DNA of 10,539 bases from Calditrichia bacterium (lineage in GTDB: Bacteria > Calditrichota > Calditrichia > RBG-13-44-9): positions 1 through 10,539 of the forward strand of contig JARRQT010000113.1 of NCBI GenBank assembly GCA_037381445.1, given 5' to 3'. This document shows positions 1-10,539 of this stretch, piece by piece (the stretch's first letter is position 1; each line of letters opens with the position of its first letter). The position numbers and the translations under genes were made by a program. The notes beneath the pieces were generated by a model. The model saw only the letters and a program-made list of their open reading frames with translations. It did no database searches and had not been told where the DNA came from.

Positions 1-958
1 TCCCGGTTCCAGCGGAAATCACAATATTGCCGCCAGTTCATCCACCAGGGATCAATATGCACAACGTCAGCCGGCAGATCATGCTCCTCCAAGCTGTCCA
101 GCAGCTTTTCCATGGCTGCCTGGTTACGATAGGTTCCTCCTGATGAGACCCACAAACCAAAACTCCACTTAGGAGGCAATGGTGCATGGCCGGTCAGCTC
201 TGCATAGTGCTGCAGTATTTCGGCGGGCGAAGGACCATAAATCAGATACAGATCCAGATCTTCAGATTCGATCGTGATCGTCGCACTCTGACAGGAGACC
301 ATTCCCAACTCCCAGGTGATCCTGGCGGTTGAATCAATGAAAAGTCCATCCCCCGGGTGCTCCATAAAAACGGTATATTTTTATGGGATTTTTCACTGGT
401 AGAACCCAGCGCATCCCGGGTCCAGCTGACAATCCGTTGACCCATTTTATTAAGTGGGAGGAATTTTTCTCCAAGACCATAAAGACGTTCATCCGGCCGG
501 AGATGAAAAGAGAAAGTCACTTTCCGAACGCCATTTTTATCGCGAACATATCCCAGCGGAAGGACAAAAGGACGTCCCAGTCCATCCACATCCTCCGGAT
601 TTTCACGAAATATATCCTGTTCGAAATCGTTCCCGAAAAGGATACGCCACGGTTTTGCCCGGAGCTTCAATGTCAGATTGGCGCCGGTGACCATTATTTC
701 ATCATTATTCGAAGAGAATACCGGTTTTTCATTCAGGCCGGCTGGAATTCTTGCGGGGGAATCTTCCCATTCGCCCTCCGGATTCGGGGAAAAGCGGATA
801 CGCCAGATATCCGGCGTCAGGGGATGAAACAAAACGGGAACACTTTCACCGGCAGCGGTTTCCGCCATCACCTGCAAGCGGTCTTCGCCGGGAAACCAGG
901 AATAGGCAGCTGTGATCCAATCGAAGTTTTCAGGAGCATTATGCGGGCGATTTGACAT
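1..958 (-). pseudogene. GH31 glycoside hydrolase (YicI-like alpha-xylosidase/alpha-glucosidase), 5' part; frameshifted at ~349-354 (real lesion or sequencing error), truncated by window edge
   Basis: ORF 958-242 has GH31 N-terminal motifs (ERLYGLGEKF, SHKNIPFLWSTRG). A -1 shift at CGGGGGATGGA continues without a stop to position 1 as GLFIDSTARITWELG...DLYLIYGPSPAEILQHYAELTGHAPLPPKWSFGLWVS...DLPADVVHIDPWW...CDFRWNR, typical GH31 sequence. The start overlaps the upstream gene by 20 nt. Confidence 0.85.
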
Positions 959-2087
959 TCGTATTCAGCCTCATCAGTTGATAGATTTCGTGAAGATCCG
1001 TTACCGGCCAGTCTTCTCCGGTAATCCCATTAGTTATATCTACATTTATAAATAAACCACGGGTCGTTTTGCTGGAATTGAGTATACGGGTCACGTAATC
1101 CACCATTCCCTGAAATTTTATTTCCTGGTTTAAGCCCACGCGGCATGCCAGTGGAATTTTTCCACCGAAATGCCCAATGACATCCTGGTAAGGGGCTTCA
1201 CTGGCACCGAACTCGAGGCCACGCAGCCGGTGCACCTTGTCCAGGCTGGGAAACTGGTGCGTCCAGTTGCCACAGGAATGAATATAGATACCGCCAAATT
1301 CCTCAGAGAGTTGATTCACATAAGGAATATGGAATTCATCGTGCATATCCGCCGAGATCATGACACATTCATCATTGGAGATTGAAATGCCCTTTCCGTT
1401 TGGCAGCCATGGCTGGAACATGGCAGGAACGAATTCCACGTTGTATTCTTCCACTATCTCACGCTGGGCTTTTGCAAATGCGATCGTCAGTTCGGTTACC
1501 GCCTTCATAAGAAAATGTACTTCAGCCGGGTTTGTCAGCATGGCGGTGAACAGGTTGGTATGCCCAAAGATAAGCGCGGCATTGTCGAGCGGGCCCTGGA
1601 TGTCGGTCAGGCGAATGGGGTATTTGCCTTCGGTTTTCTCTATAAAATAGCGGGTATAATCCAGAATCCGTTTAAGCTCTCCGTGATGAATGGAGGGCAT
1701 CTCCAGGTCATATATCTTCTTAGGATCGCTGCCGATCACCGGACGTGCAGAAGGAAAGTCATTATCCCACCACACCACCTCGCTCCCAAAAGCCGATGCT
1801 ATGGCGATCACGCCCAGGGACGGGCAGAGACTGGGGACATAATCCCCTTTCAGTTTCAATTGCCCTTCAATCTCCTGAAGCTGCGCCTGCAGGTATTTTT
1901 CCGGATCCAGCAAGCGGTCTTTCACTGTATCCCTGCCTTCGGTTGAAAACAGCGCGCTCTTTACGGCTTTACCTCCCTTTACCCCGGATCCGGGGTAACC
2001 GATCATAAATGCCGGCCGCTCATCATTTTCCAGATTCCAAAAGCGATTTAAAAAGGCTTTGTTTTCCCTGATGTGCTCTTTTATCAC
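939..2087 (-). CDS. UroD/MtaA-CmuA superfamily protein (putative corrinoid-dependent methyltransferase), divergent
   Basis: 382 aa; GTG start with AAGGGA Shine-Dalgarno; family motifs TDIQGPLDNAALIFG, ISISND and IYIHSCG (HxC); lacks the UroD MRQAGR catalytic motif. Confidence 0.8.
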   Translation of the reverse strand: MIKEHIRENKAFLNRFWNLENDERPAFMIGYPGSGVKGGKAVKSALFSTEGRDTVKDRLLDPEKYLQAQLQEIEGQLKLKGDYVPSLCPSLGVIAIASAFGSEVVWWDNDFPSARPVIGSDPKKIYDLEMPSIHHGELKRILDYTRYFIEKTEGKYPIRLTDIQGPLDNAALIFGHTNLFTAMLTNPAEVHFLMKAVTELTIAFAKAQREIVEEYNVEFVPAMFQPWLPNGKGISISNDECVMISADMHDEFHIPYVNQLSEEFGGIYIHSCGNWTHQFPSLDKVHRLRGLEFGASEAPYQDVIGHFGGKIPLACRVGLNQEIKFQGMVDYVTRILNSSKTTRGLFINVDITNGITGEDWPVTDLHEIYQLMRLNTNVKSPA

Positions 2088-2232
2088 TGCGATTATCCCT
2101 TTTTGTCAGTTTATAGAGACAAAGTTTCAAAATAAGGGAACGGATACACCTGTATCACCATCCTCTCCAGACACCTGGTCCAGGCAGTCCGCACTCCCAA
2201 AAGACTTTCTACCGCTATTGCGGTTTCGTTGT

Positions 2233-3387
2233 TTAATCATAGCGGCCGTATTGTTCGGCGGCTTCCATCATGGCATTGATGTTCTCCACAGGGGTTCCCG
2301 GTGGAATGTTGTTACCATCCTGGAGAATGAGTCCGCCATAGGGGCCTAGTTTTTCGATGACTACCCTGCAAGCCTGACGCACCTCCTCCGGTGTGCCGGA
2401 ATGAATTAGCATGGGATTCACATTGCCGATCAGAACCACTCTTCCGCCCATCACTTCGGCTATGGTATCCAGATCCACCTGGTATCCGAATCCCTGCAGC
2501 TCGTTTATTTGAAGATCTTCAGCAAAGGTTTTTAAGAGATGGTCAGATTTTCCACACATATGCAAACTGAGATAACCATCAAAATGGAAGCGCAGTTTCT
2601 TTTCAAACGGAAGCACCAGCTCGCGATAAGTTTCTTCGGAAAGGGAAACTGCCAGATCATCGGTCCAGGCGAAATCTTTTGGGGTCGGCAGATTTTCTTC
2701 TTCCCAACAAAAATCCAGGTATTCGATTAATTTATCGGTAACAATTCGCAGTAATTCCCTCACAAATTCAGGCCGCTCATATACCGCAGTGAATATTTCG
2801 GTGACGCCCATGAGATCGCCTGCTACGCCAAACGGCCCGTCAGAAGTGTGGGTAAGAGACGGATTTTCGCCGGGATAAAATATCTCTCCGCCCTGGAAAC
2901 GCACCGGGTACTTTTCAGCTACGGCCATCATGGCATTGCGGTATTCCACCTGTCGGGCATTCAGACCACTGTGGATAAAATCCATATCCTCCAGCCGCCT
3001 GAGATCGTCATCATTTTTAACCCAGGCAGGCCCCACCCAGGGAATATCATCATCGGGAAACACAATTTCGCACCCCAGGCTGCCGGCCTCAAAGGTATTC
3101 TGAAAGTCGGTCCAGGCACCCACCCAGGCACCGGTAATGGAATAGGCATCGGTACGGATATTTTCCATCAACCATTTCTGGGCCAGAATCTGGGTACGCA
3201 GCATGGTCTCGGGATCGCGATAATAATCCCGGAAGCGAACGCCCACCTGTGGCACCAGAAGACGGTGCGCAATTGCCGGTACCACCGGAACCCGATCCGG
3301 TTTCTCAAAGTGCTTTGCTTTCCGTATTCGCTCTTCTCTTTTGGCAATTTCTTCAGCAGGTATTTCAATTTCAATGATATCTTTCAT
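2233..3387 (-). CDS. UroD/MtaA-CmuA superfamily protein (putative corrinoid-dependent methyltransferase)
   Basis: Motifs PDRVPV, DGPFGVAGDLMG, WTDD, LHMCG, IGNVNP, GTPEEV and GGLILQDGNNIPPGTPVENINAM. ATG at 3387 preferred (GGA 7 nt upstream); TTG at 3393 is the alternative start. Confidence 0.88.
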   Translation of the reverse strand: MKDIIEIEIPAEEIAKREERIRKAKHFEKPDRVPVVPAIAHRLLVPQVGVRFRDYYRDPETMLRTQILAQKWLMENIRTDAYSITGAWVGAWTDFQNTFEAGSLGCEIVFPDDDIPWVGPAWVKNDDDLRRLEDMDFIHSGLNARQVEYRNAMMAVAEKYPVRFQGGEIFYPGENPSLTHTSDGPFGVAGDLMGVTEIFTAVYERPEFVRELLRIVTDKLIEYLDFCWEEENLPTPKDFAWTDDLAVSLSEETYRELVLPFEKKLRFHFDGYLSLHMCGKSDHLLKTFAEDLQINELQGFGYQVDLDTIAEVMGGRVVLIGNVNPMLIHSGTPEEVRQACRVVIEKLGPYGGLILQDGNNIPPGTPVENINAMMEAAEQYGRYD

Positions 3388-3425
3388 GGGCAATTCCGGC
3401 TTCTGCTTTCAGGATATCTGATAAT

Positions 3426-4589
3426 TTAATAGACACACTTTCTGGCTTCATCGGCAAAAGCTTCGATCAGTTCCGGCTGGGCATCGAAGAAATGATCGGA
3501 GGGCGAAAGAATGAACCCGCCACCTTCTCCCGCAGCTTCAAAACAGGAACGCACCGCCTGACGGGTATCCTCCGGGGTGCTGTCCTTAAAATAGTGGAAC
3601 TGATCAAATCCGCCTATCATACACACCTGATCACCGATGCGCTGCTTGGCTTCCTGCAGAATGGTGTCCCCTCCCATGGCAGGTGGCGTAAAGGTTTCCA
3701 TGGCATCCGGCTTCATACCGGCCAGCTTTTCCAAAAAGGGCATCATCCCGCCGCAGGTATGATACACCACTCGCTGGCCCATTTCCTGCGCCAGCACTGT
3801 CAGGGGACCATCATAGGGGAGTACATACTCTTCCAGTATCTGTGGCGAGATCACCGTGGAAGAGGCATCTCCGCCCCCATGTTCAATAATATCAAATCTT
3901 GCATCCTTCATCGAGCGGATGTAAATTTCCTTCCGCTCCTGCAGAATGCGAAGAAAAGTATGCAGCCATTCAGGATCGTAGAATGTCTCCATGATCAGAT
4001 TTTCTATTCCAAAGAGCACTGCCGCATCCTGCCAGCAGCCGGATTGGCCATAGACTTCAAAACCGGGTATCAGCCCTCGGACCAGACCCCGCTGTCCAAA
4101 AGCGTCAGCTTCACGGTTGACGGCTTCCACATCACAGAGTGGTGCGGGAGCATATTTGGCGATAATATCGATGTCGCTTTTTTCCTTTACCAGACGTTCA
4201 GACACCCAGGAGGTGTATTCATTACTCTGAAGCGCCATGCTGAGTGTTTTCTCCGGCGTAGCAAAGTGGTAGCGCACCGTATGATACTGCTCACCGGGGA
4301 TCTCTTCCGTTTTTACACGCCAGGTATCACTGGCCATGCGCCGGGGTTCCAAAAATCCGGGCCGGGTATGCCCGGGATCATAATAGGCGCCCTTTGAAGC
4401 ATCGGGTTTATGCAGTACCACCCAATTAATGGGATCCAGCCCAAAACGGTCAAAGAACTCCTGGTAAGAAATTCCATCCAGATATGTTTTTAAGAAATAG
4501 GGCATTACATGGTGGGTGGTCACCGGCAGACGATCGGGTATCTTCCTATCCAGAACCGTCAGAAAGCGTTCTTTGGAGGTCATGCTCAT
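3426..4589 (-). CDS. UroD/MtaA-CmuA superfamily protein (putative corrinoid-dependent methyltransferase)
   Basis: 387 aa; N-terminus MTSKERF...PDRLPV, ISPQILEEYVLPY, YHTCGG, IGGFDQ, GGGFILSPSDH; AAGGA Shine-Dalgarno. Confidence 0.88.
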   Translation of the reverse strand: MSMTSKERFLTVLDRKIPDRLPVTTHHVMPYFLKTYLDGISYQEFFDRFGLDPINWVVLHKPDASKGAYYDPGHTRPGFLEPRRMASDTWRVKTEEIPGEQYHTVRYHFATPEKTLSMALQSNEYTSWVSERLVKEKSDIDIIAKYAPAPLCDVEAVNREADAFGQRGLVRGLIPGFEVYGQSGCWQDAAVLFGIENLIMETFYDPEWLHTFLRILQERKEIYIRSMKDARFDIIEHGGGDASSTVISPQILEEYVLPYDGPLTVLAQEMGQRVVYHTCGGMMPFLEKLAGMKPDAMETFTPPAMGGDTILQEAKQRIGDQVCMIGGFDQFHYFKDSTPEDTRQAVRSCFEAAGEGGGFILSPSDHFFDAQPELIEAFADEARKCVY

Positions 4590-4685
4590 ACAACTGTTTC
4601 CTTACTGATAAAAGTTTAATTTAAACAGAACAAAGCCAGTGGGCAAAGCAATAACCGTTCAGGCCTGTTCGACAAACATACTTTC

Positions 4686-5270
<585 letters not shown>

Positions 5271-6023
5271 CTATTGATGGCGTTTTTCCTGTCTCCGACG
5301 GAAACAGTTCTTCATATCACAAATGGCACAGGGATAGCTGAGGCGCTTTACGTTTTCCCCTACACCAATGAAACCGCTCACTGATTTTACCGGCACCATC
5401 AGTGCTGATTCGGTGAGGCGGATACCCAGAAATTCGGGCGGCAACAGGGAGAAGAGTTTGTGCTGTTCAAAGACATCCCAGCCACAATATCCCGGGCTGA
5501 AACGATTGGTGATCTTCAGATTCTGTGATGCAAGCTGCTCAATTAACCGCTGTTCCAGCCAATCCGCTGCACTCTCCACGATCTCAGATCCTACGCAATC
5601 CACAACATAGCCACCAGGGAAATCCCCTTCGTTGAAGAGCTCCTTTGACCATTTATCAAATACCGCACCGGCGGTGGAGGCAAAAAGCGCTACCGTGCGG
5701 CTGTTTTTTAACTGGCGGGCAATGATCTTTCCGGTTTGAAACGTCTGCCGGCAGCAGCTCACCTGTTCCTTTTCCAGCAGAAATTGTTCGGGCGGGAGAA
5801 TCCGATATCCGGCACGAATATCCGCGACCTCGGCAGAGCGAGTAATGATCTCGGTGATTTTCTCCCGGTAAAAATCAGGCAGTGAACCGTTTTCGTATCC
5901 CATTCCCCGTTCCACAGACGCTTCATTAAAATTAAGCTCCTGCAGAGGAATCCTGAACTCCCTTACCTGCCCTGTTTCGATACCGGATAGGAAGATTTGA
6001 CTGCTTAGCGTTCTTTCTTGCAT
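5271..6023 (-). CDS. Stand-alone B12-dependent methionine synthase activation (SAM-binding) domain protein
   Basis: 250 aa; RFSPGYCGW...Q..LF.LL...GIRLTESALMVPVKSVSGFIG matches the MetH C-terminal reactivation domain (RxxxGY); C-terminal CxxCxxxxC. Confidence 0.88.
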   Translation of the reverse strand: MQERTLSSQIFLSGIETGQVREFRIPLQELNFNEASVERGMGYENGSLPDFYREKITEIITRSAEVADIRAGYRILPPEQFLLEKEQVSCCRQTFQTGKIIARQLKNSRTVALFASTAGAVFDKWSKELFNEGDFPGGYVVDCVGSEIVESAADWLEQRLIEQLASQNLKITNRFSPGYCGWDVFEQHKLFSLLPPEFLGIRLTESALMVPVKSVSGFIGVGENVKRLSYPCAICDMKNCFRRRQEKRHQ

Positions 6024-6064
6024 AATATTATTTCTGACCGCCTTTTGACTTTCATTCCAATTAT

Positions 6065-6730
6065 TTACAGAAGGTTCTCCAGGTAAGCCGGTAGTCCATG
6101 GGGAGACTGGAAATAAGCGTCAGCACCAATTTTCTTTCGGTAGTCATCGGTTACCGGTGCTCCACCAATGATGATTCTTACGTCCGGATGTTTGGATTTT
6201 ATCTCTTTGACAGATTTCTCCATATTAAGCATGGTGGTAGTGAGCAATGCGCTCATTCCGACTGGTGCTTTTGGATTTTGTGCAATAGCCTGCAAATATT
6301 TTTCAGTGGTCACATCGGTACCCAGATCGATCACCTTCCAGCCGGCTCCTTCCAGTATCATCTTGACAATATTTTTTCCGATGTCATGAAGGTCACCAGC
6401 CACAGTGCCGATGATAAAAGATCCTTTATGCTGAATTTCGCCGGAGGAGAAATAGGGTTTGAGCAGTTCGGAGGAGGCAGTCATCGCCTTGGCGGCAATC
6501 ATCAGGTCAGGTATAAAGGCCTGCCCATTCCCGAATTTATCTCCGATACGGCGCATCCCGATCATAAAACCATGAGTCAAAATTTGCTGAGGCTTGGCGC
6601 CGTTGTCCAATGCCTGTTTGGTCAATTCAACTGCGCCGGGCTGCCCTTTCATATCAGGCGGATACGGCGAAGTTTCATTGACTTTCCCCCGCTCAATACA
6701 TGTAGCTATTTTCTCAAAAATTTCATTCAT
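6065..6730 (-). CDS. Corrinoid (cobalamin-binding) methyltransferase cognate protein, MtaC/MttC-like
   Basis: 221 aa; cap domain (GMRRIGDKF..GQAFIPDLM) plus B12-binding Rossmann domain GTVAGDLHDIGKNIV, SALLTTTM, IIGGAP, IGAD; CAGGGAG Shine-Dalgarno. Confidence 0.95.
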   Translation of the reverse strand: MNEIFEKIATCIERGKVNETSPYPPDMKGQPGAVELTKQALDNGAKPQQILTHGFMIGMRRIGDKFGNGQAFIPDLMIAAKAMTASSELLKPYFSSGEIQHKGSFIIGTVAGDLHDIGKNIVKMILEGAGWKVIDLGTDVTTEKYLQAIAQNPKAPVGMSALLTTTMLNMEKSVKEIKSKHPDVRIIIGGAPVTDDYRKKIGADAYFQSPHGLPAYLENLL

Positions 6731-6843
6731 TGATAACTCCCTGTTGTAAGATACACAAAACTACTATTCGATATGCAATTCAAAGGAATCACAAAAGGCT
6801 ACGGTTATTAATACGACCGGTTGAATATTATAAGATTTCAGCA

Positions 6844-8418
6844 TCATGATCCGATCAGTCCATTAAAAATTTTGAAAGGATCAGTTTTGCCAGTTCCCGT
6901 CCTGATCCGGAGGCTAATTTCGCTGTATGCTTCTTTGATCGACAAATAAGCCTCCTTGTTTTCTGGGATTTTTCTTCTCGTCTCATCCACTTTCACAAAA
7001 GTTTGCGTTAGAGATTGAAGATCCGACTCCGAACCATTCTCCCTGGAATATGCCCATGCCGCATGAATGGCGGCACCCAGCGCAGCTCCTTCACCCTCTA
7101 CCGGCACTGTTTCAATCCCGAACACATCTGCTATGGTTTGACACCAGGCTTCGGATTTGCTGAGTCCCCCGGTCAAACGGATTTCCCGTGGTACAACCGG
7201 CATTCGGTGAAATCCATCATACAAATTAAGCACATGGCCCTCCAATACTGCCCGGCACAACACCGGCTTCTGGAAATCATTAAGACCGAATCCCCAATAT
7301 ATCGGTGATGCCTCAGGAAGATCCGGCGTCCGCTCCCCCATATACCATGGAAAAAGCAATTTGCCCTGGTTCCCGGGGGGCGTTTGATGAAGGATATCAT
7401 CGAATTCCTTATGATTGAGATTGAAGAGGTCCAGAATCTGATTATACCCATTCGCCATATTGGATACACACAACAGGGGCATAAATTTTCCTGTGCTGTC
7501 ACAAAAGGATGCGATCTCACCTTGCGGATCCACATAGGGTTCATCAGTGATTGTATAAGCTGTGCCGCTGGTTCCCAAGCTTATTGTTACAATTCCCGGC
7601 CGGATATTACCGGTTCCGATTGCACCGTACATATTGTCACCGCTGCCCGCATCGATTCGGCAATCTTCATCAAAACCATATTTTTGAACCAAATCTTTGG
7701 AAATAAATCCAATCATTTTATCAGAAGTCTGCACCGGGGAGAGTTTATCCATTAGATCCGGGGAAATCGCATTGCATACTGTTTGATTCCAATCATTTGA
7801 ACCCGGATGCCTGAGGGCCATTCCCGAGACATCACCGGGTTCCATCATCCGAATTCCGCCTTTTTTTCCGCCTGTTAAGAACCAGTTAATAAAATTATGA
7901 ACCAGAAAGAATGTAGCAGTGTTTTTCGCTGCTTCTGCTTCATGACGATAAAAATGAAGTATTTTGCCGGCAGTGTAACCCGGCCGCTGAGTATTTCCGA
8001 TTTCCGAAATCATCTTTTCCGGGCCGCCAACAGCGGCAGTTAACAAATCACACTCCTCAGCAGTAGAATAATCATTCCACAACTTGCTCCGGGATCGCGT
8101 GAGATTACCTGCAATGTCCAGGGCCACCAATCCATGCTGCTGCCCGGATACCGAAATAGCGCGGATACTCCCAATTGGAAATTTGTTTTCCACCATTCTT
8201 GAAAATAAAAGGTCGAGTGCGTCAAGCCACATATTGGGATCCGCTTCTGAAATATTCTTTTGACTCGAGAGGATTACTCCGCCGTTTGTCTGGTATTCGG
8301 GCAAGTCATGATCATAATTGATCGAATCCACATATTCGATTTTGCCTGCCCCGGTGTTAATACAGACCACTTTACAGCCTTGAGTGCTGGAATCAATTCC
8401 CAGGAATAAAGTCTTCAT
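6844..8418 (-). CDS. xylB: Xylulokinase (FGGY carbohydrate kinase)
   Basis: Motifs LGIDSSTQ, SGQQHG, LWND, GSGDN, SLGTSG, GERTP, RAVLEG, LTGG.SKS and EGAALGAA. ATG at 8418 preferred; TTG at 8433 is possible. The exact ketose substrate is not proven. Confidence 0.85.
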   Translation of the reverse strand: MKTLFLGIDSSTQGCKVVCINTGAGKIEYVDSINYDHDLPEYQTNGGVILSSQKNISEADPNMWLDALDLLFSRMVENKFPIGSIRAISVSGQQHGLVALDIAGNLTRSRSKLWNDYSTAEECDLLTAAVGGPEKMISEIGNTQRPGYTAGKILHFYRHEAEAAKNTATFFLVHNFINWFLTGGKKGGIRMMEPGDVSGMALRHPGSNDWNQTVCNAISPDLMDKLSPVQTSDKMIGFISKDLVQKYGFDEDCRIDAGSGDNMYGAIGTGNIRPGIVTISLGTSGTAYTITDEPYVDPQGEIASFCDSTGKFMPLLCVSNMANGYNQILDLFNLNHKEFDDILHQTPPGNQGKLLFPWYMGERTPDLPEASPIYWGFGLNDFQKPVLCRAVLEGHVLNLYDGFHRMPVVPREIRLTGGLSKSEAWCQTIADVFGIETVPVEGEGAALGAAIHAAWAYSRENGSESDLQSLTQTFVKVDETRRKIPENKEAYLSIKEAYSEISLRIRTGTGKTDPFKIFNGLIGS

Positions 8419-8459
8419 TCTTATTTTGTCCAATGAGTAACTTTGACAACCCTAATAAA

Positions 8460-8540: not shown

Positions 8541-9518
8541 CTAGTTTTCTTGCAGCATATGATGTGTTTCAAAAAGTTCTGCCTTCTCAACCGGTTGAAT
8601 ACCTGCGCGGTGAAATTGCATAGTTCCTGCAATGATTGCCATTTTTGCCGCCGATACAAGATCTCTTCCCTCTGCCAGACAGGCTGCTATAATCGCAGTC
8701 ACCTGATCCCCGCAACCTGTCTCATCCCGGATTTTGCTTTCTTTTGCTTCCAATACCGGCAAATGCATGCTTATTTCGTTATTAAACAAATAAGCCCCCC
8801 TCGCCCCGTGAGTAATGAGAACATTTTGGACGCCTTTTCCCAACAAGACTTCAGCAGCCAACTTTGCCGATGTAAAATCCGTAACGGATAAACCGGTTAT
8901 CATTTTAACCTCATGTTCATTTGGTTTTATGAGGAATATTTTCTCGTCCAGAATATCATCAACTGCCTCACTAATTCCTCCGGGATCAAGAATAATACGA
9001 ATTCCTTTTTGCGAGGCTTTTTCAAGAGCATAACGGACGGCGTCCACAGGTATTTCCAGGGCAAGCATCATAATTTTTTGTCTGTCCGGATTCTCAAATA
9101 AAATGTCGGCCTGGTCCAAATCCTGCCTGCAGAAATCAGCATTTACCCCAGGAAGCACATAAATCTGATTTTTTCCTGATTTATCAACAGGAATAATGGC
9201 AATACCCGGAAATTTTTGACCGGCTTCATCAAACTCTAATATTTTCACAAATGATATATCAACGCCGGCTTTTTGCAAAGACATGAGAGGCGATTTCCAT
9301 AAACCAAAGGGATCTTTGCTGCTGCGACCCATCATGGCAACTTTTCCTTTTCCCAGATAAGACGCTGCCATTTGCGCCATGTTTCGGGCTTTTCCCCCCG
9401 GACCAATTTTCAGTTCTCCGCCTAATGTCAATTCACCCGCTCCCAACAATCTGTCAACACCAAGACCAATAATATCCGTATTCAGCCCACCGGGCACTAT
9501 CACTAAATGATTTGCCAT
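8541..9518 (-). CDS. PfkB family carbohydrate kinase (ribokinase-like)
   Basis: 325 aa; GGLNTDI, GPGGKARNMA, KPNEHE, VLITHGARG and DETGCGD (PfkB signature 2); GGGGAG Shine-Dalgarno. Confidence 0.9.
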   Translation of the reverse strand: MANHLVIVPGGLNTDIIGLGVDRLLGAGELTLGGELKIGPGGKARNMAQMAASYLGKGKVAMMGRSSKDPFGLWKSPLMSLQKAGVDISFVKILEFDEAGQKFPGIAIIPVDKSGKNQIYVLPGVNADFCRQDLDQADILFENPDRQKIMMLALEIPVDAVRYALEKASQKGIRIILDPGGISEAVDDILDEKIFLIKPNEHEVKMITGLSVTDFTSAKLAAEVLLGKGVQNVLITHGARGAYLFNNEISMHLPVLEAKESKIRDETGCGDQVTAIIAACLAEGRDLVSAAKMAIIAGTMQFHRAGIQPVEKAELFETHHMLQEN

Positions 9519-9580
9519 TCAATATCTCCCCGAATTTTCTCTTTCTGGCTCATGATTATTCCATCAAGCAAAACGATTTA

Positions 9581-9609
9581 AATATAAATGTTCATGATAA
9601 CATTTTCAA
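9581..9609 (-). promoter_or_regulatory. Sigma70-type promoter for the PfkB kinase, with a palindromic operator in the spacer
   Basis: Minus strand TTGAAA-N17-TATATT (-35 at 9609-9604, -10 at 9586-9581); overlapped by AAATGTT-N6-AACATTT (9586-9605). Confidence 0.6.
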
Positions 9610-9758
9610 TCACCATTAAAATCGTACAAAGAATGATAATTCTGTAAGCATAATATTAAATTTGAATTCATGGATGGTTACTTTGATCATAGTACCAATA
9701 CGGCAGCCAATCCGCTTGCTAGATTTCAAGGAGCAATCTTATGAGCTTATTAATTTCG

Positions 9759-9787
9759 TTGTTTTTCAGGCTCCATTTTTCTATATT
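9759..9787 (+). promoter_or_regulatory. Candidate sigma70 promoter for the sugar-binding protein gene
   Basis: TTGTTT-N17-TATATT about 175 nt upstream of ATG 9962; the region is AT-rich, so a chance match is possible. Confidence 0.3.
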
Positions 9788-9961
9788 TTTACTGAGTTGA
9801 ATGTTAATTAAATATTGCTTCCGTTTTAACCTGATTTTAGACGATGCCGATTTTTGTTTTAGTGCTCAGTTTTGAGATTCGAATCATTCCCATTTCTCTT
9901 TGCAAAAAAACTGCTTTAGTTATCCAGTTTTAATGATCATATAAAAAGAAGCGAGGAATTT

Positions 9962-10539
9962 ATGGTACGGAAATTTATTGTCTTTGGAATTATGTTATCG
10001 CTATCATCCCTTATAATACTGGGATGTCAGAGTAAAAGCAGCAGCAAAAAATACGTTATCGGATTCAGCCAGTGCAACAGCGCGGAGCCCTGGCGCGAAG
10101 CCATGAACAAAAAAATGGCTGCGGAAGCCGCCAATCATCCGGAGATTGAACTGGTGATCTCCGATGCCCAGCAGGACAATTCCCGGCAGGTGGCCGATGT
10201 GGAAAATTTTATCGTGAAGGAGGTTGACCTCCTTATTATTTCCCCCAATGAAGCGCAGCCATTGACTGCCATCGTCGAAACGGCATATGATAAAGGCATT
10301 CCGGTGATCGTCCTGGATCGAAAAATACTGTCTGCCAAATACACCACTTTTATCGGGGCCGACAATGTGCAGATCGGTGAAGCGGCCGGACAATATGCCG
10401 CCAGGCTCCTCAATGGAAAGGGCAAAGTGGTGGAGATATGGGGGCTGAAGGGATCTACCCCGGCGATAGAACGGCACAACGGTTTTATGAAAGGCATCGC
10501 TGGATTTCCCGGCATCGAGATCATCTACGATCAGGATGG
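9962..10539 (+). CDS. Sugar-binding periplasmic protein (PBP type 1, RbsB-like), likely lipoprotein; 3' end outside window
   Basis: Not in the ORF track because it has no stop. Manual translation gives MVRKFIVFGIMLSLSSLIILGCQSKSSSKKYVIGFSQCNSAEPWREAMN...VDLLIISPNEAQPL...GIPVIVLDR...FIGADNVQIG...VVEIWGLKGSTPAIERHNGF. It has a GAGG Shine-Dalgarno and a signal peptide with an ILGC lipobox. Confidence 0.92.
   Translation, partial: MVRKFIVFGIMLSLSSLIILGCQSKSSSKKYVIGFSQCNSAEPWREAMNKKMAAEAANHPEIELVISDAQQDNSRQVADVENFIVKEVDLLIISPNEAQPLTAIVETAYDKGIPVIVLDRKILSAKYTTFIGADNVQIGEAAGQYAARLLNGKGKVVEIWGLKGSTPAIERHNGFMKGIAGFPGIEIIYDQD

Follow-up and report, generated by a model that had tools for sequence, protein, structure and literature searches.

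A candidate corrinoid-dependent, oxygen-independent route for O-demethylation of sugars in a Calditrichia gene run

Among the closest described relatives of the system treated here are the corrinoid aryl O-demethylases found in anaerobes (MtvB, OdmB, VdmB and MtoB) and the related CdmBCA, as far as the available part of PMC13222342 describes them. With these, a contig of 10,539 nucleotides from a Calditrichia bacterium (JARRQT010000113.1 of assembly GCA_037381445.1) shares candidate methyltransferases I of the uroporphyrinogen decarboxylase (UroD) superfamily, a neighboring stand-alone corrinoid protein, and a metal site that is not His-Cys-Cys. The contexts differ, being aromatics or haloalkanes there and sugar here. 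On the strength of gene content and residue patterns, we consider it reasonably probable that the contig carries an operon for the corrinoid-dependent, oxygen-independent O-demethylation of O-methyl pentoses. We refer to this whole stretch as the window; it is the complete contig C113 of a 5.1-Mb genome in 401 contigs that is 91.85% complete, and all genome-wide negative results given below apply to an assembly of that completeness. The features expected of a corrinoid O-demethylase are found in part: a stand-alone corrinoid protein with the DxHxxG motif is present, as are UroD-superfamily methyltransferases I that by alignment lack the His-Cys-Cys site (the third ligand of one, UroD3, being ambiguous), while a stand-alone, folate-binding (pterin-binding) methyltransferase II, an ATP-dependent RACE/Ram activator, and Wood-Ljungdahl markers were not identified in the genome.

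A second likeness is to MtgBCDE of Ruegeria pomeroyi, the split methionine synthase/glycine betaine demethylase, in which a donor methyltransferase and a subunit that binds homocysteine likewise share a stand-alone corrinoid hub. According to the accessible portion of PMC12478193, however, MtgB, a member of the MttB family, acts as the donor there and the pterin-binding subunit MtgD is indispensable, whereas the candidate donors in the window have the UroD fold and its genome encodes a full-length MetH and no identified stand-alone pterin methyltransferase. A homocysteine-binding zinc-cysteine subunit is encoded outside the window, on contig C397; a stand-alone counterpart of MtgD was not found here but is present in a sister system described below, and no MttB-family donor was seen among the window genes (no genome-wide search for it was made). 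Type 1 mlp gene clusters (PMC10418091) also combine several co-oriented UroD/MtaA-like genes with a corrinoid gene and no folate methylase, but they encode at least two His-Cys-Cys enzymes (Mlps), contain a Ram/RACE gene, and are linked with sulfur and selenium, whereas the window's neighbors are sugar genes, His-Cys-Cys is found in UroD5 on contig C59 alone, and no Ram/RACE gene was found. By analogy, the system would behave as if an aryl O-demethylase were coupled to a split methionine synthase, yet it falls outside both of these groups and outside the type 1 mlp clusters.

Methylated sugars resist gut microbial breakdown and accumulate in seawater, as stated in the section of PMC6292453 available to us, which also presents CYP236A, a P450 that demethylates 6-O-methyl-D-galactose. 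There, too, removal of an O-methyl group enables sugar catabolism, but CYP236A is described as an oxidative haem enzyme with ferredoxin partners, and it is unrelated to the window system in fold and cofactor. The Bacteroides thetaiotaomicron genes BT_0338-0343 are comparable by annotation alone: in the accessible text of PMC8941943, BT_0340, BT_0342, and BT_0343 are annotated as Mta corrinoid/methyltransferase genes, and the GH141 gene BT_0338 adjoins them (PMC8264420, also available in part). We found no corrinoid sugar demethylase in searches of the open-access literature; article supplements may nevertheless contain expression data for clusters of this kind.

The core of the window encodes, from upstream to downstream on the minus strand, a stand-alone corrinoid (B12-binding) protein (6065..6730; B12-binding domain at 90.7 bits plus a cap domain), a stand-alone MetH activation domain (5271..6023; PF02965, 41.7 bits), a D-lyxose isomerase (4686..5228), and three proteins of the URO-D/MtaA fold, namely, UroD1 (3426..4589), a candidate O-demethylase acting as methyltransferase I, and UroD2 (2233..3387) and UroD3 (939..2087), both candidate methyltransferases I. 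The corrinoid protein carries the motif D113-x-H115-x-x-G118, which is invariant across 35 aligned relatives, and an N-terminal insertion common to the relatives in loci L001-L028. The activation-domain protein is predicted, from the known role of this domain in MetH, to be an S-adenosylmethionine (SAM)-dependent corrinoid reactivator. The genes are all on the minus strand, with spacers of -20 to 145 bp; as a sequence-only reading of this DNA had noted, they are co-oriented, and the isomerase gene does lie inside the methyltransferase module. Its place there is between the activation domain and UroD1. We infer co-transcription solely from this spacing. The gene order recurs in relatives where contigs allow, indicating that the arrangement is not due to chance; the closest named locus sharing it is that of Caldithrix sp. 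(L001), with proteins 51-77% identical.

The predicted metal sites of the UroD paralogues differ in the third zinc-ligand position. When aligned, the site reads His-Cys-Asp in UroD1 (H277-x-C279, third position D365), His-Cys-Asn in UroD2, and HxC with an ambiguous third ligand in UroD3; UroD4 and UroD5, both encoded on contig C59, have His-Cys-His and His-Cys-Cys, respectively. HxCG is kept in 100/100 copies of UroD1, 20/20 of UroD2, and 16/16 of UroD3, while the third-cysteine motif of MtaA occurs in 0/100 UroD1, 0/20 UroD2, 0/16 UroD4-type, and 11/11 UroD5 copies, counts that include duplicates. Kountz and Balskus (PMC10418091) stated that His-Cys-Cys marks S-methyltransferases and that its replacement by a carboxylate or a non-coordinating residue marks O-methyltransferases; certain methyltransferases I lack zinc (PMC13222342, in the part available). 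In lacking the third zinc cysteine of thiol methyltransferases, UroD1-3 resemble O-demethylases, and the overall pattern fits four O-type donor enzymes (UroD1-4) and, with UroD5, one thiol methyltransferase. The earlier reading, in which an MtaA-like enzyme moves a sugar methyl group to the corrinoid, is partly supported by an O-type rather than S-type zinc site and by co-occurrence with corrinoid proteins at the genome level. The top sequence-profile match of UroD1 in PDB is MtaA. UroD1-3 scored 47-92 bits and UroD5 scored 153 bits against MtaA/MtbA (NCBIfam cut-off, 244 bits), and UroD1-3 reached at best 31.6 bits against HemE (TIGR01464; cut-off, 302.95), the genome having a much stronger URO-D match elsewhere, on C396. 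UroD2 matched CdmB weakly (30 bits). UroD1-3 share pairwise identities of 23-24% over the aligned parts, and the paralogues form separate deep clades (FastTree, with long-branch warnings). Relatives are numerous: at E<=1e-30, UroD1 matched 3285 proteins, of which the top 120 are >=66% identical to it, and UroD3 matched 526 at E<=1e-40; a search of the protein-cluster Atlas returned URO-D clusters only.

UroD1 is the sugar-linked gene of the run. We collected 102 loci bearing a UroD1 orthologue, which gave 90 non-redundant loci after merging at 95% identity, and recorded neighbors within 10 kb; 24 loci with at least 8 kb of upstream sequence formed a long-flank subset. The resulting counts are lower bounds, as many contigs are short, and are not blind, as the reference set for the sugar labels came partly from the same neighborhoods. 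A sugar gene was found in 73 of the 90 loci and in 23 of the 24 with long flanks, in agreement with the proposal that UroD-like genes accompany sugar catabolism. Lyxose isomerase was present in 44 and 18, respectively, and lay directly upstream of UroD1 in at least 27 of 68 loci. Another UroD gene was found in 36 of the 90 loci, a pentose kinase in 25, the activation domain in 21, and GH38 in 19, while RACo and MtaB were absent from all 90. Among the long-flank loci, 11 had a corrinoid gene and 6 had a homocysteine S-methyltransferase (HMT) gene. GH31, proposed earlier to release the sugar, was rejected as the core partner, since it occurred in only 9/90 loci. Two UroD1 orthologues (L147 and L155) lie in L-rhamnose isomerase/aldolase loci, after an unannotated 406-amino-acid protein. 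The genome also has a second sugar locus, on contig C23 (L098, G000:C23:1-9000), with two UroD-like genes, GH2, an SSF and an Nramp-like transporter, a xylose-isomerase-like barrel, and GH28. A single Bacillota relative of UroD1 was found (1/301; 41% identity), in a fucose-isomerase locus; the Bacillota operon L222 (G720:C5:80000-99000) comprises LacI, a UroD4-like protein, a sugar ABC importer, a UroD1-like protein (about 40%), L-fucose isomerase, and an aldolase.

At the level of whole genomes, UroD1 and corrinoid proteins go together. Among 401 genomes from the phylum of one Bacteroidales genome, 7 had a UroD1 orthologue (an eighth has a 39% paralogue); a corrinoid match was present in 7/7 of these, compared to 49/401 overall, and the close corrinoid subfamily was present in 5/7, compared to 28/401. 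Five additional genomes gave no UroD1 match. UroD2 was matched in 6/16 genomes of the same family and in 0/24 more distant relatives, and all six UroD2-bearing family genomes have the corrinoid protein, at 62-76% identity. In four genomes (G001, G081, G097, and G273), the corrinoid gene is absent beside UroD1 but present elsewhere with HMT; in G024 and G027 it lies immediately next to UroD1.

Rather than being sugar-specific, the corrinoid subfamily is a general hub whose partner binds homocysteine. In the closest 28 of 80 corrinoid loci in the genome collection (L001-L028), a UroD-like neighbor was found in 28/28, HMT in 16/28, the activation domain in 11/28, MtaB in 1/28, and lyxose isomerase in 1/28. 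The expectation that this subfamily would co-occur with sugar genes therefore mostly failed, and we rejected it as a sugar marker. In four loci (L127, L182, L197, and L198), the genes for the corrinoid protein, activation domain, HMT, lyxose isomerase, and UroD1 are all in one run, the HMT being placed between the activation domain and the lyxose isomerase. In Calditrichia-type genomes (L007:9950-13774, L205, and L206), MtaB stands beside the same corrinoid subfamily, a MetH activation domain, and a His-x-Asp UroD-like gene, an arrangement that is possibly a methanol-fed variant of the hub. A Bacteroidales module (L011, L012, L015, L016, L020, and L021) consists of the corrinoid protein, a UroD-like protein, a UroD-thioredoxin fusion in which the HxC histidine is replaced (FxC) and the third cysteine is kept, CobW, and HMT. 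In L232 (G343:C1:108000-124000), GH78 rhamnosidases are co-oriented with a UroD-like gene, the corrinoid protein, the activation domain, and a His-Cys-Cys UroD5 orthologue.

The genome also bears on the fate of the methyl group. Its two PF00809 matches are the full MetH and a protein on contig C119, which was not examined further, so that a stand-alone pterin-binding methyltransferase II was not identified; RACo/RACE/Ram activators gave 0 matches, and the Wood-Ljungdahl markers CdhC and FTHFS were not found. Because no folate methyltransferase II, RACE activator, or Wood-Ljungdahl marker was found, the methyl sink is likely homocysteine or another thiol rather than tetrahydrofolate. An acetogen-type sink was rejected on account of the missing CdhC and FTHFS, though MTHFR is present. 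Contig C397 encodes a split activation domain and a stand-alone HMT (PF02574, 191 bits; Cys209, Cys263, and Cys264) that, in a tree of 32 rows, clusters (support 100/100) with HMTs from three UroD1 loci and from three corrinoid modules.

In the pathway we propose, glycosidases (GH2, GH38, and GH31) and transporters (SSF and a sugar-binding protein) would make O-methylated monosaccharides or small glycosides available. As a substrate-specific methyltransferase I, each UroD paralogue would use its metal site to activate the ether oxygen, and the corrinoid protein would accept the methyl group on its Co(I). Isomerization and phosphorylation of the released pentose would follow, this pentose being D-lyxose for UroD1 and probably D-xylose, D-ribose, or L-arabinose for the others. 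From the methyl-corrinoid, the stand-alone HMT, encoded on C397 here and within the operon in several relatives, would pass the methyl group to homocysteine, with UroD5 as a possible second sink using a thiol or sulfide. The activation domain, with SAM, would restore Co(I) in place of a RACE enzyme.

The nature of the sugar is suggested mainly by the isomerase, which matches the Thermofilum enzyme TsLI at 278.8 bits and keeps all its active-site residues and R175, as expected of the D-lyxose-specific type. TsLI has under 2% activity on mannose, its lyxose specificity being attributed to R175 (PMC8378251, in the text available), and this residue is kept in 48/48 isomerase copies (duplicates included). 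The gene upstream of the corrinoid gene encodes an FGGY kinase, likely a xylulokinase (6844..8433, minus strand; start TTG 8433 or ATG 8418); its top PDB matches are xylulose kinases, and it scores 355.8 bits against TIGR01312 (XylB), under the cut-off of 380.25. Together, the two enzymes are predicted to convert D-lyxose to xylulose 5-phosphate. The run had been taken to span 1..8433; its genes stand, but its start does not, since a PfkB-family, ribokinase-like sugar kinase (8541..9518, minus strand; PF00294, 128.7 bits; TIGR02152, 160 bits, under cut-off) precedes the FGGY kinase by 122 bp, is co-oriented with it, is kept in relatives, and is thus the first gene. Ribokinase, D-ribose pyranase, and ribulokinase occur above NCBIfam cut-offs among other neighbors and, with the xylose-isomerase-like barrel, suggest that further pentoses are handled. 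Overall, the downstream enzymes point to pentoses rather than methylated hexoses. Mannose/fructose was considered as the product owing to GH38 and is weakened by R175 and by the neighboring kinase scoring as a ribokinase. Lyxose isomerase is not tied to UroD everywhere: among 201 archaeal genomes, 14 encode one, and a UroD-like gene lies within 1.5 kb in 1/14.

A sister system provides a sugar methyl ether by its context. Among 17 loci with more distant corrinoid proteins, L235 (G357:C28:1-10000) has the order GH10, GH115, UroD-like, corrinoid, CE15; the UroD-like gene (L235:2008-3063, minus strand) represents a family 28% identical to UroD2 that occurs in 19/216 genomes of its order, at 84-100% identity. 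GH115, GH67, and CE15 act on 4-O-methylglucuronate, so that such an ether would be available to the system, and this UroD-like family is a candidate 4-O-methylglucuronate demethylase. In 20 loci, the corrinoid gene was found in 18, HMT in 18, xylan enzymes in 9, and GH115/GH67/CE15 in 4; arabinose or aldose-epimerase genes were present in 6 more, and no sugar gene was seen in 5, three of which start near a contig end. The sister system also has a pterin-binding protein, MTHFR, and RACo. By analogy, it supports the reaction class, not the window's substrate. The xylan context across the family (L235, L233, and L242-L259; 84-92% identity) includes GH115, GH67, CE15, GH10, and GH43, and in one genome the xylan-linked methyl-transfer locus occurs a second time (L252, G1102:C12:236000-252000), in fragments and with many broken frames.

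Several observations weigh against O-demethylation of pentoses by the corrinoid route. The alkyl ether of a sugar is a poorer leaving group than an aryl ether, and we know of no abundant natural O-methyl-D-lyxose, nor did a literature search find one. The UroD-fold O-demethylases named in PMC10418091 and in the available part of PMC13222342 act on aryl ethers. A corrinoid gene lies within 10 kb in 25/90 UroD1 loci (11/24 with long flanks) and HMT in 9/90; no corrinoid gene accompanies the UroD pair of C23 within the 9 kb covered, or the Bacillota relative of UroD1 within 19 kb. Sugar labels were found in 7/28 corrinoid loci, in four of these solely as a GH172-like gene, and the related genomes in the co-occurrence counts are not independent. 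For bulk growth, methionine synthesis offers little capacity as a sink. Finally, for the predicted structure of UroD1 (pLDDT 93.4), Foldseek scored UroD decarboxylases and MtaA alike (TM about 0.55-0.63); as the two barrels match about equally, the fold does not decide the chemistry.

These points lend themselves to a B12-independent explanation, which we regard as rather unlikely: UroD1-4 would be sugar metalloenzymes (an epimerase, a lyase, or a uronate decarboxylase giving a pentose), with the corrinoid, activation, and homocysteine genes forming a separate methionine module that is often nearby. It would account for the 65/90 UroD1 loci without a corrinoid gene within 10 kb, many of them on short contigs, for the UroD pair of C23, for the decarboxylases as top Foldseek matches, and for glycosidases with hexoside names (GH38, GH31, and GH2) accompanying enzymes for the matching pentoses. 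It does not readily account for the co-occurrence with corrinoid proteins across genomes (7/7 against 49/401, and 6/6 within the family), the adjacent corrinoid-UroD1 pairs of G024 and G027, MtaA as the best PDB profile match, or the HxC metal motif, a feature of the superfamily's methyltransferase branch (PMC10418091).

If the chemistry is corrinoid-dependent, the methyl donor might instead be a methoxylated aromatic aglycone freed by the glycosidases, the sugar genes consuming the sugar part. Methoxylated aromatics are indeed the substrates of the characterized UroD-fold O-demethylases (PMC13222342, as far as available), and GH78 and GH3 occur in several loci. The tightest partner of UroD1 is an aldose isomerase, however, aromatic catabolic genes were not recurrent among the neighbor clusters scanned, and the sister family adjoins GH115, GH67, and CE15, and we thus hold an aglycone donor to be quite unlikely. 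S-Methyl pentoses (5-methylthioribose and 5-methylthioxylose), with the methyl group salvaged into methionine, would suit the ribokinase and ribose pyranase neighbors, the homocysteine acceptor, and the His-Cys-Cys site of UroD5, and methionine salvage has been proposed for related clusters (PMC10418091). Such substrates are improbable, as the third cysteine is missing in all counted UroD1 and UroD2 copies and S-demethylation would presumably leave a thio-sugar, which is not known as a substrate of lyxose isomerase or xylulokinase. That the module runs in reverse, methylating sugars from SAM via the activation domain and the corrinoid protein, would fit the SAM-binding domain and the lack of a detected RACE activator but is very improbable given catabolic neighbors (glycosidases, importers, isomerases, and kinases) among which glycosyltransferases are rare.

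Corrinoid-dependent sugar O-demethylation, if true, would provide an anaerobic route for sugar demethylation beside the oxidative P450, would give a function to large families now labeled "uroporphyrinogen decarboxylase," and would extend corrinoid O-demethylation from aryl to sugar ethers, offering selective demethylating catalysts. The small set of soluble proteins makes the proposal directly testable. A broader and more doubtful version, which we offer tentatively, is that bacteria of anoxic sediments have modular B12-dependent sugar O-demethylases, each sugar or position being served by its own ancient UroD clade, and that these enzymes feed into a folate-free split methionine synthase, pass surplus methyl groups to sulfide via UroD5, and have a PhyH-type dioxygenase encoded in the same locus as an oxygen-dependent alternative. 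Corrinoid cleavage of sugar alkyl ethers would then be described for the first time, and the breakdown of recalcitrant methylated glycans would be tied to methionine and methanethiol.

The run ends in the 5' part of a GH31 gene of the YicI alpha-xylosidase type (1..958, minus strand), typed via an intact relative, the start of which overlaps the UroD3 gene by 20 bp. A one-base frameshift near 349-350 interrupts this gene. Contig C59 (G000:C59:1-528, L095) overlaps window positions 528-1 with the GH31 frame open, and the extra base was present in 4/4 sequencing runs compared (at most 3 samples). The best-matching run, from a salt-marsh metagenome (share 0.84), is not independent and possibly stems from the source sample itself; no RNA run was among the matches listed. 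The break is therefore probably an assembly error, and a GH31 pseudogene was judged unlikely. The overlap shows scattered differences that rise toward the window's end and are probably strain variants or an assembly artefact. GH31 and GH38 show no hydrophobic N terminus, GH31 thereby having no apparent signal peptide, while the GH2s show one. In the B. thetaiotaomicron cluster, BT_0339 is presumably the GH31 of PDB 5F7C.

The locus likely continues onto contigs C59 and C248. C59 carries the rest of GH31, the xylose-isomerase-like barrel, and UroD4, with UroD5, GH2-malectin, GH38, and the SSF transporter on the opposite strand, plus an aldose epimerase. An Rfam scan of the window and 20 kb of C59 gave 0 matches, and a promoter/terminator scan did no better than chance. 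Upstream of the PfkB kinase, an AT-rich divergent intergenic region (9519-9961; about 31% GC), with neither an Rfam match nor a riboswitch found, is likely a promoter region. It is followed by a divergent gene for a periplasmic sugar-binding protein (9962..10539, plus strand) that is cut by the contig end. In relatives, this gene is followed by a ribulokinase-like kinase and GH2, and because C248 encodes such a kinase and GH2, together with a PhyH-type dioxygenase, we tentatively place it next. The PhyH-type protein (L223:2752-3540, G000:C248) has retained its HQD motif and is similar to Fe/2-oxoglutarate oxygenases, EvdO1, EvdO2, and SnoK among them; a role as an oxidative back-up demethylase would be a guess. 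A PhyH-type dioxygenase was found in 13/90 UroD1 loci (e.g., L089, L199, and L200), often directly 3' of UroD1 or beside SSF and GH38.

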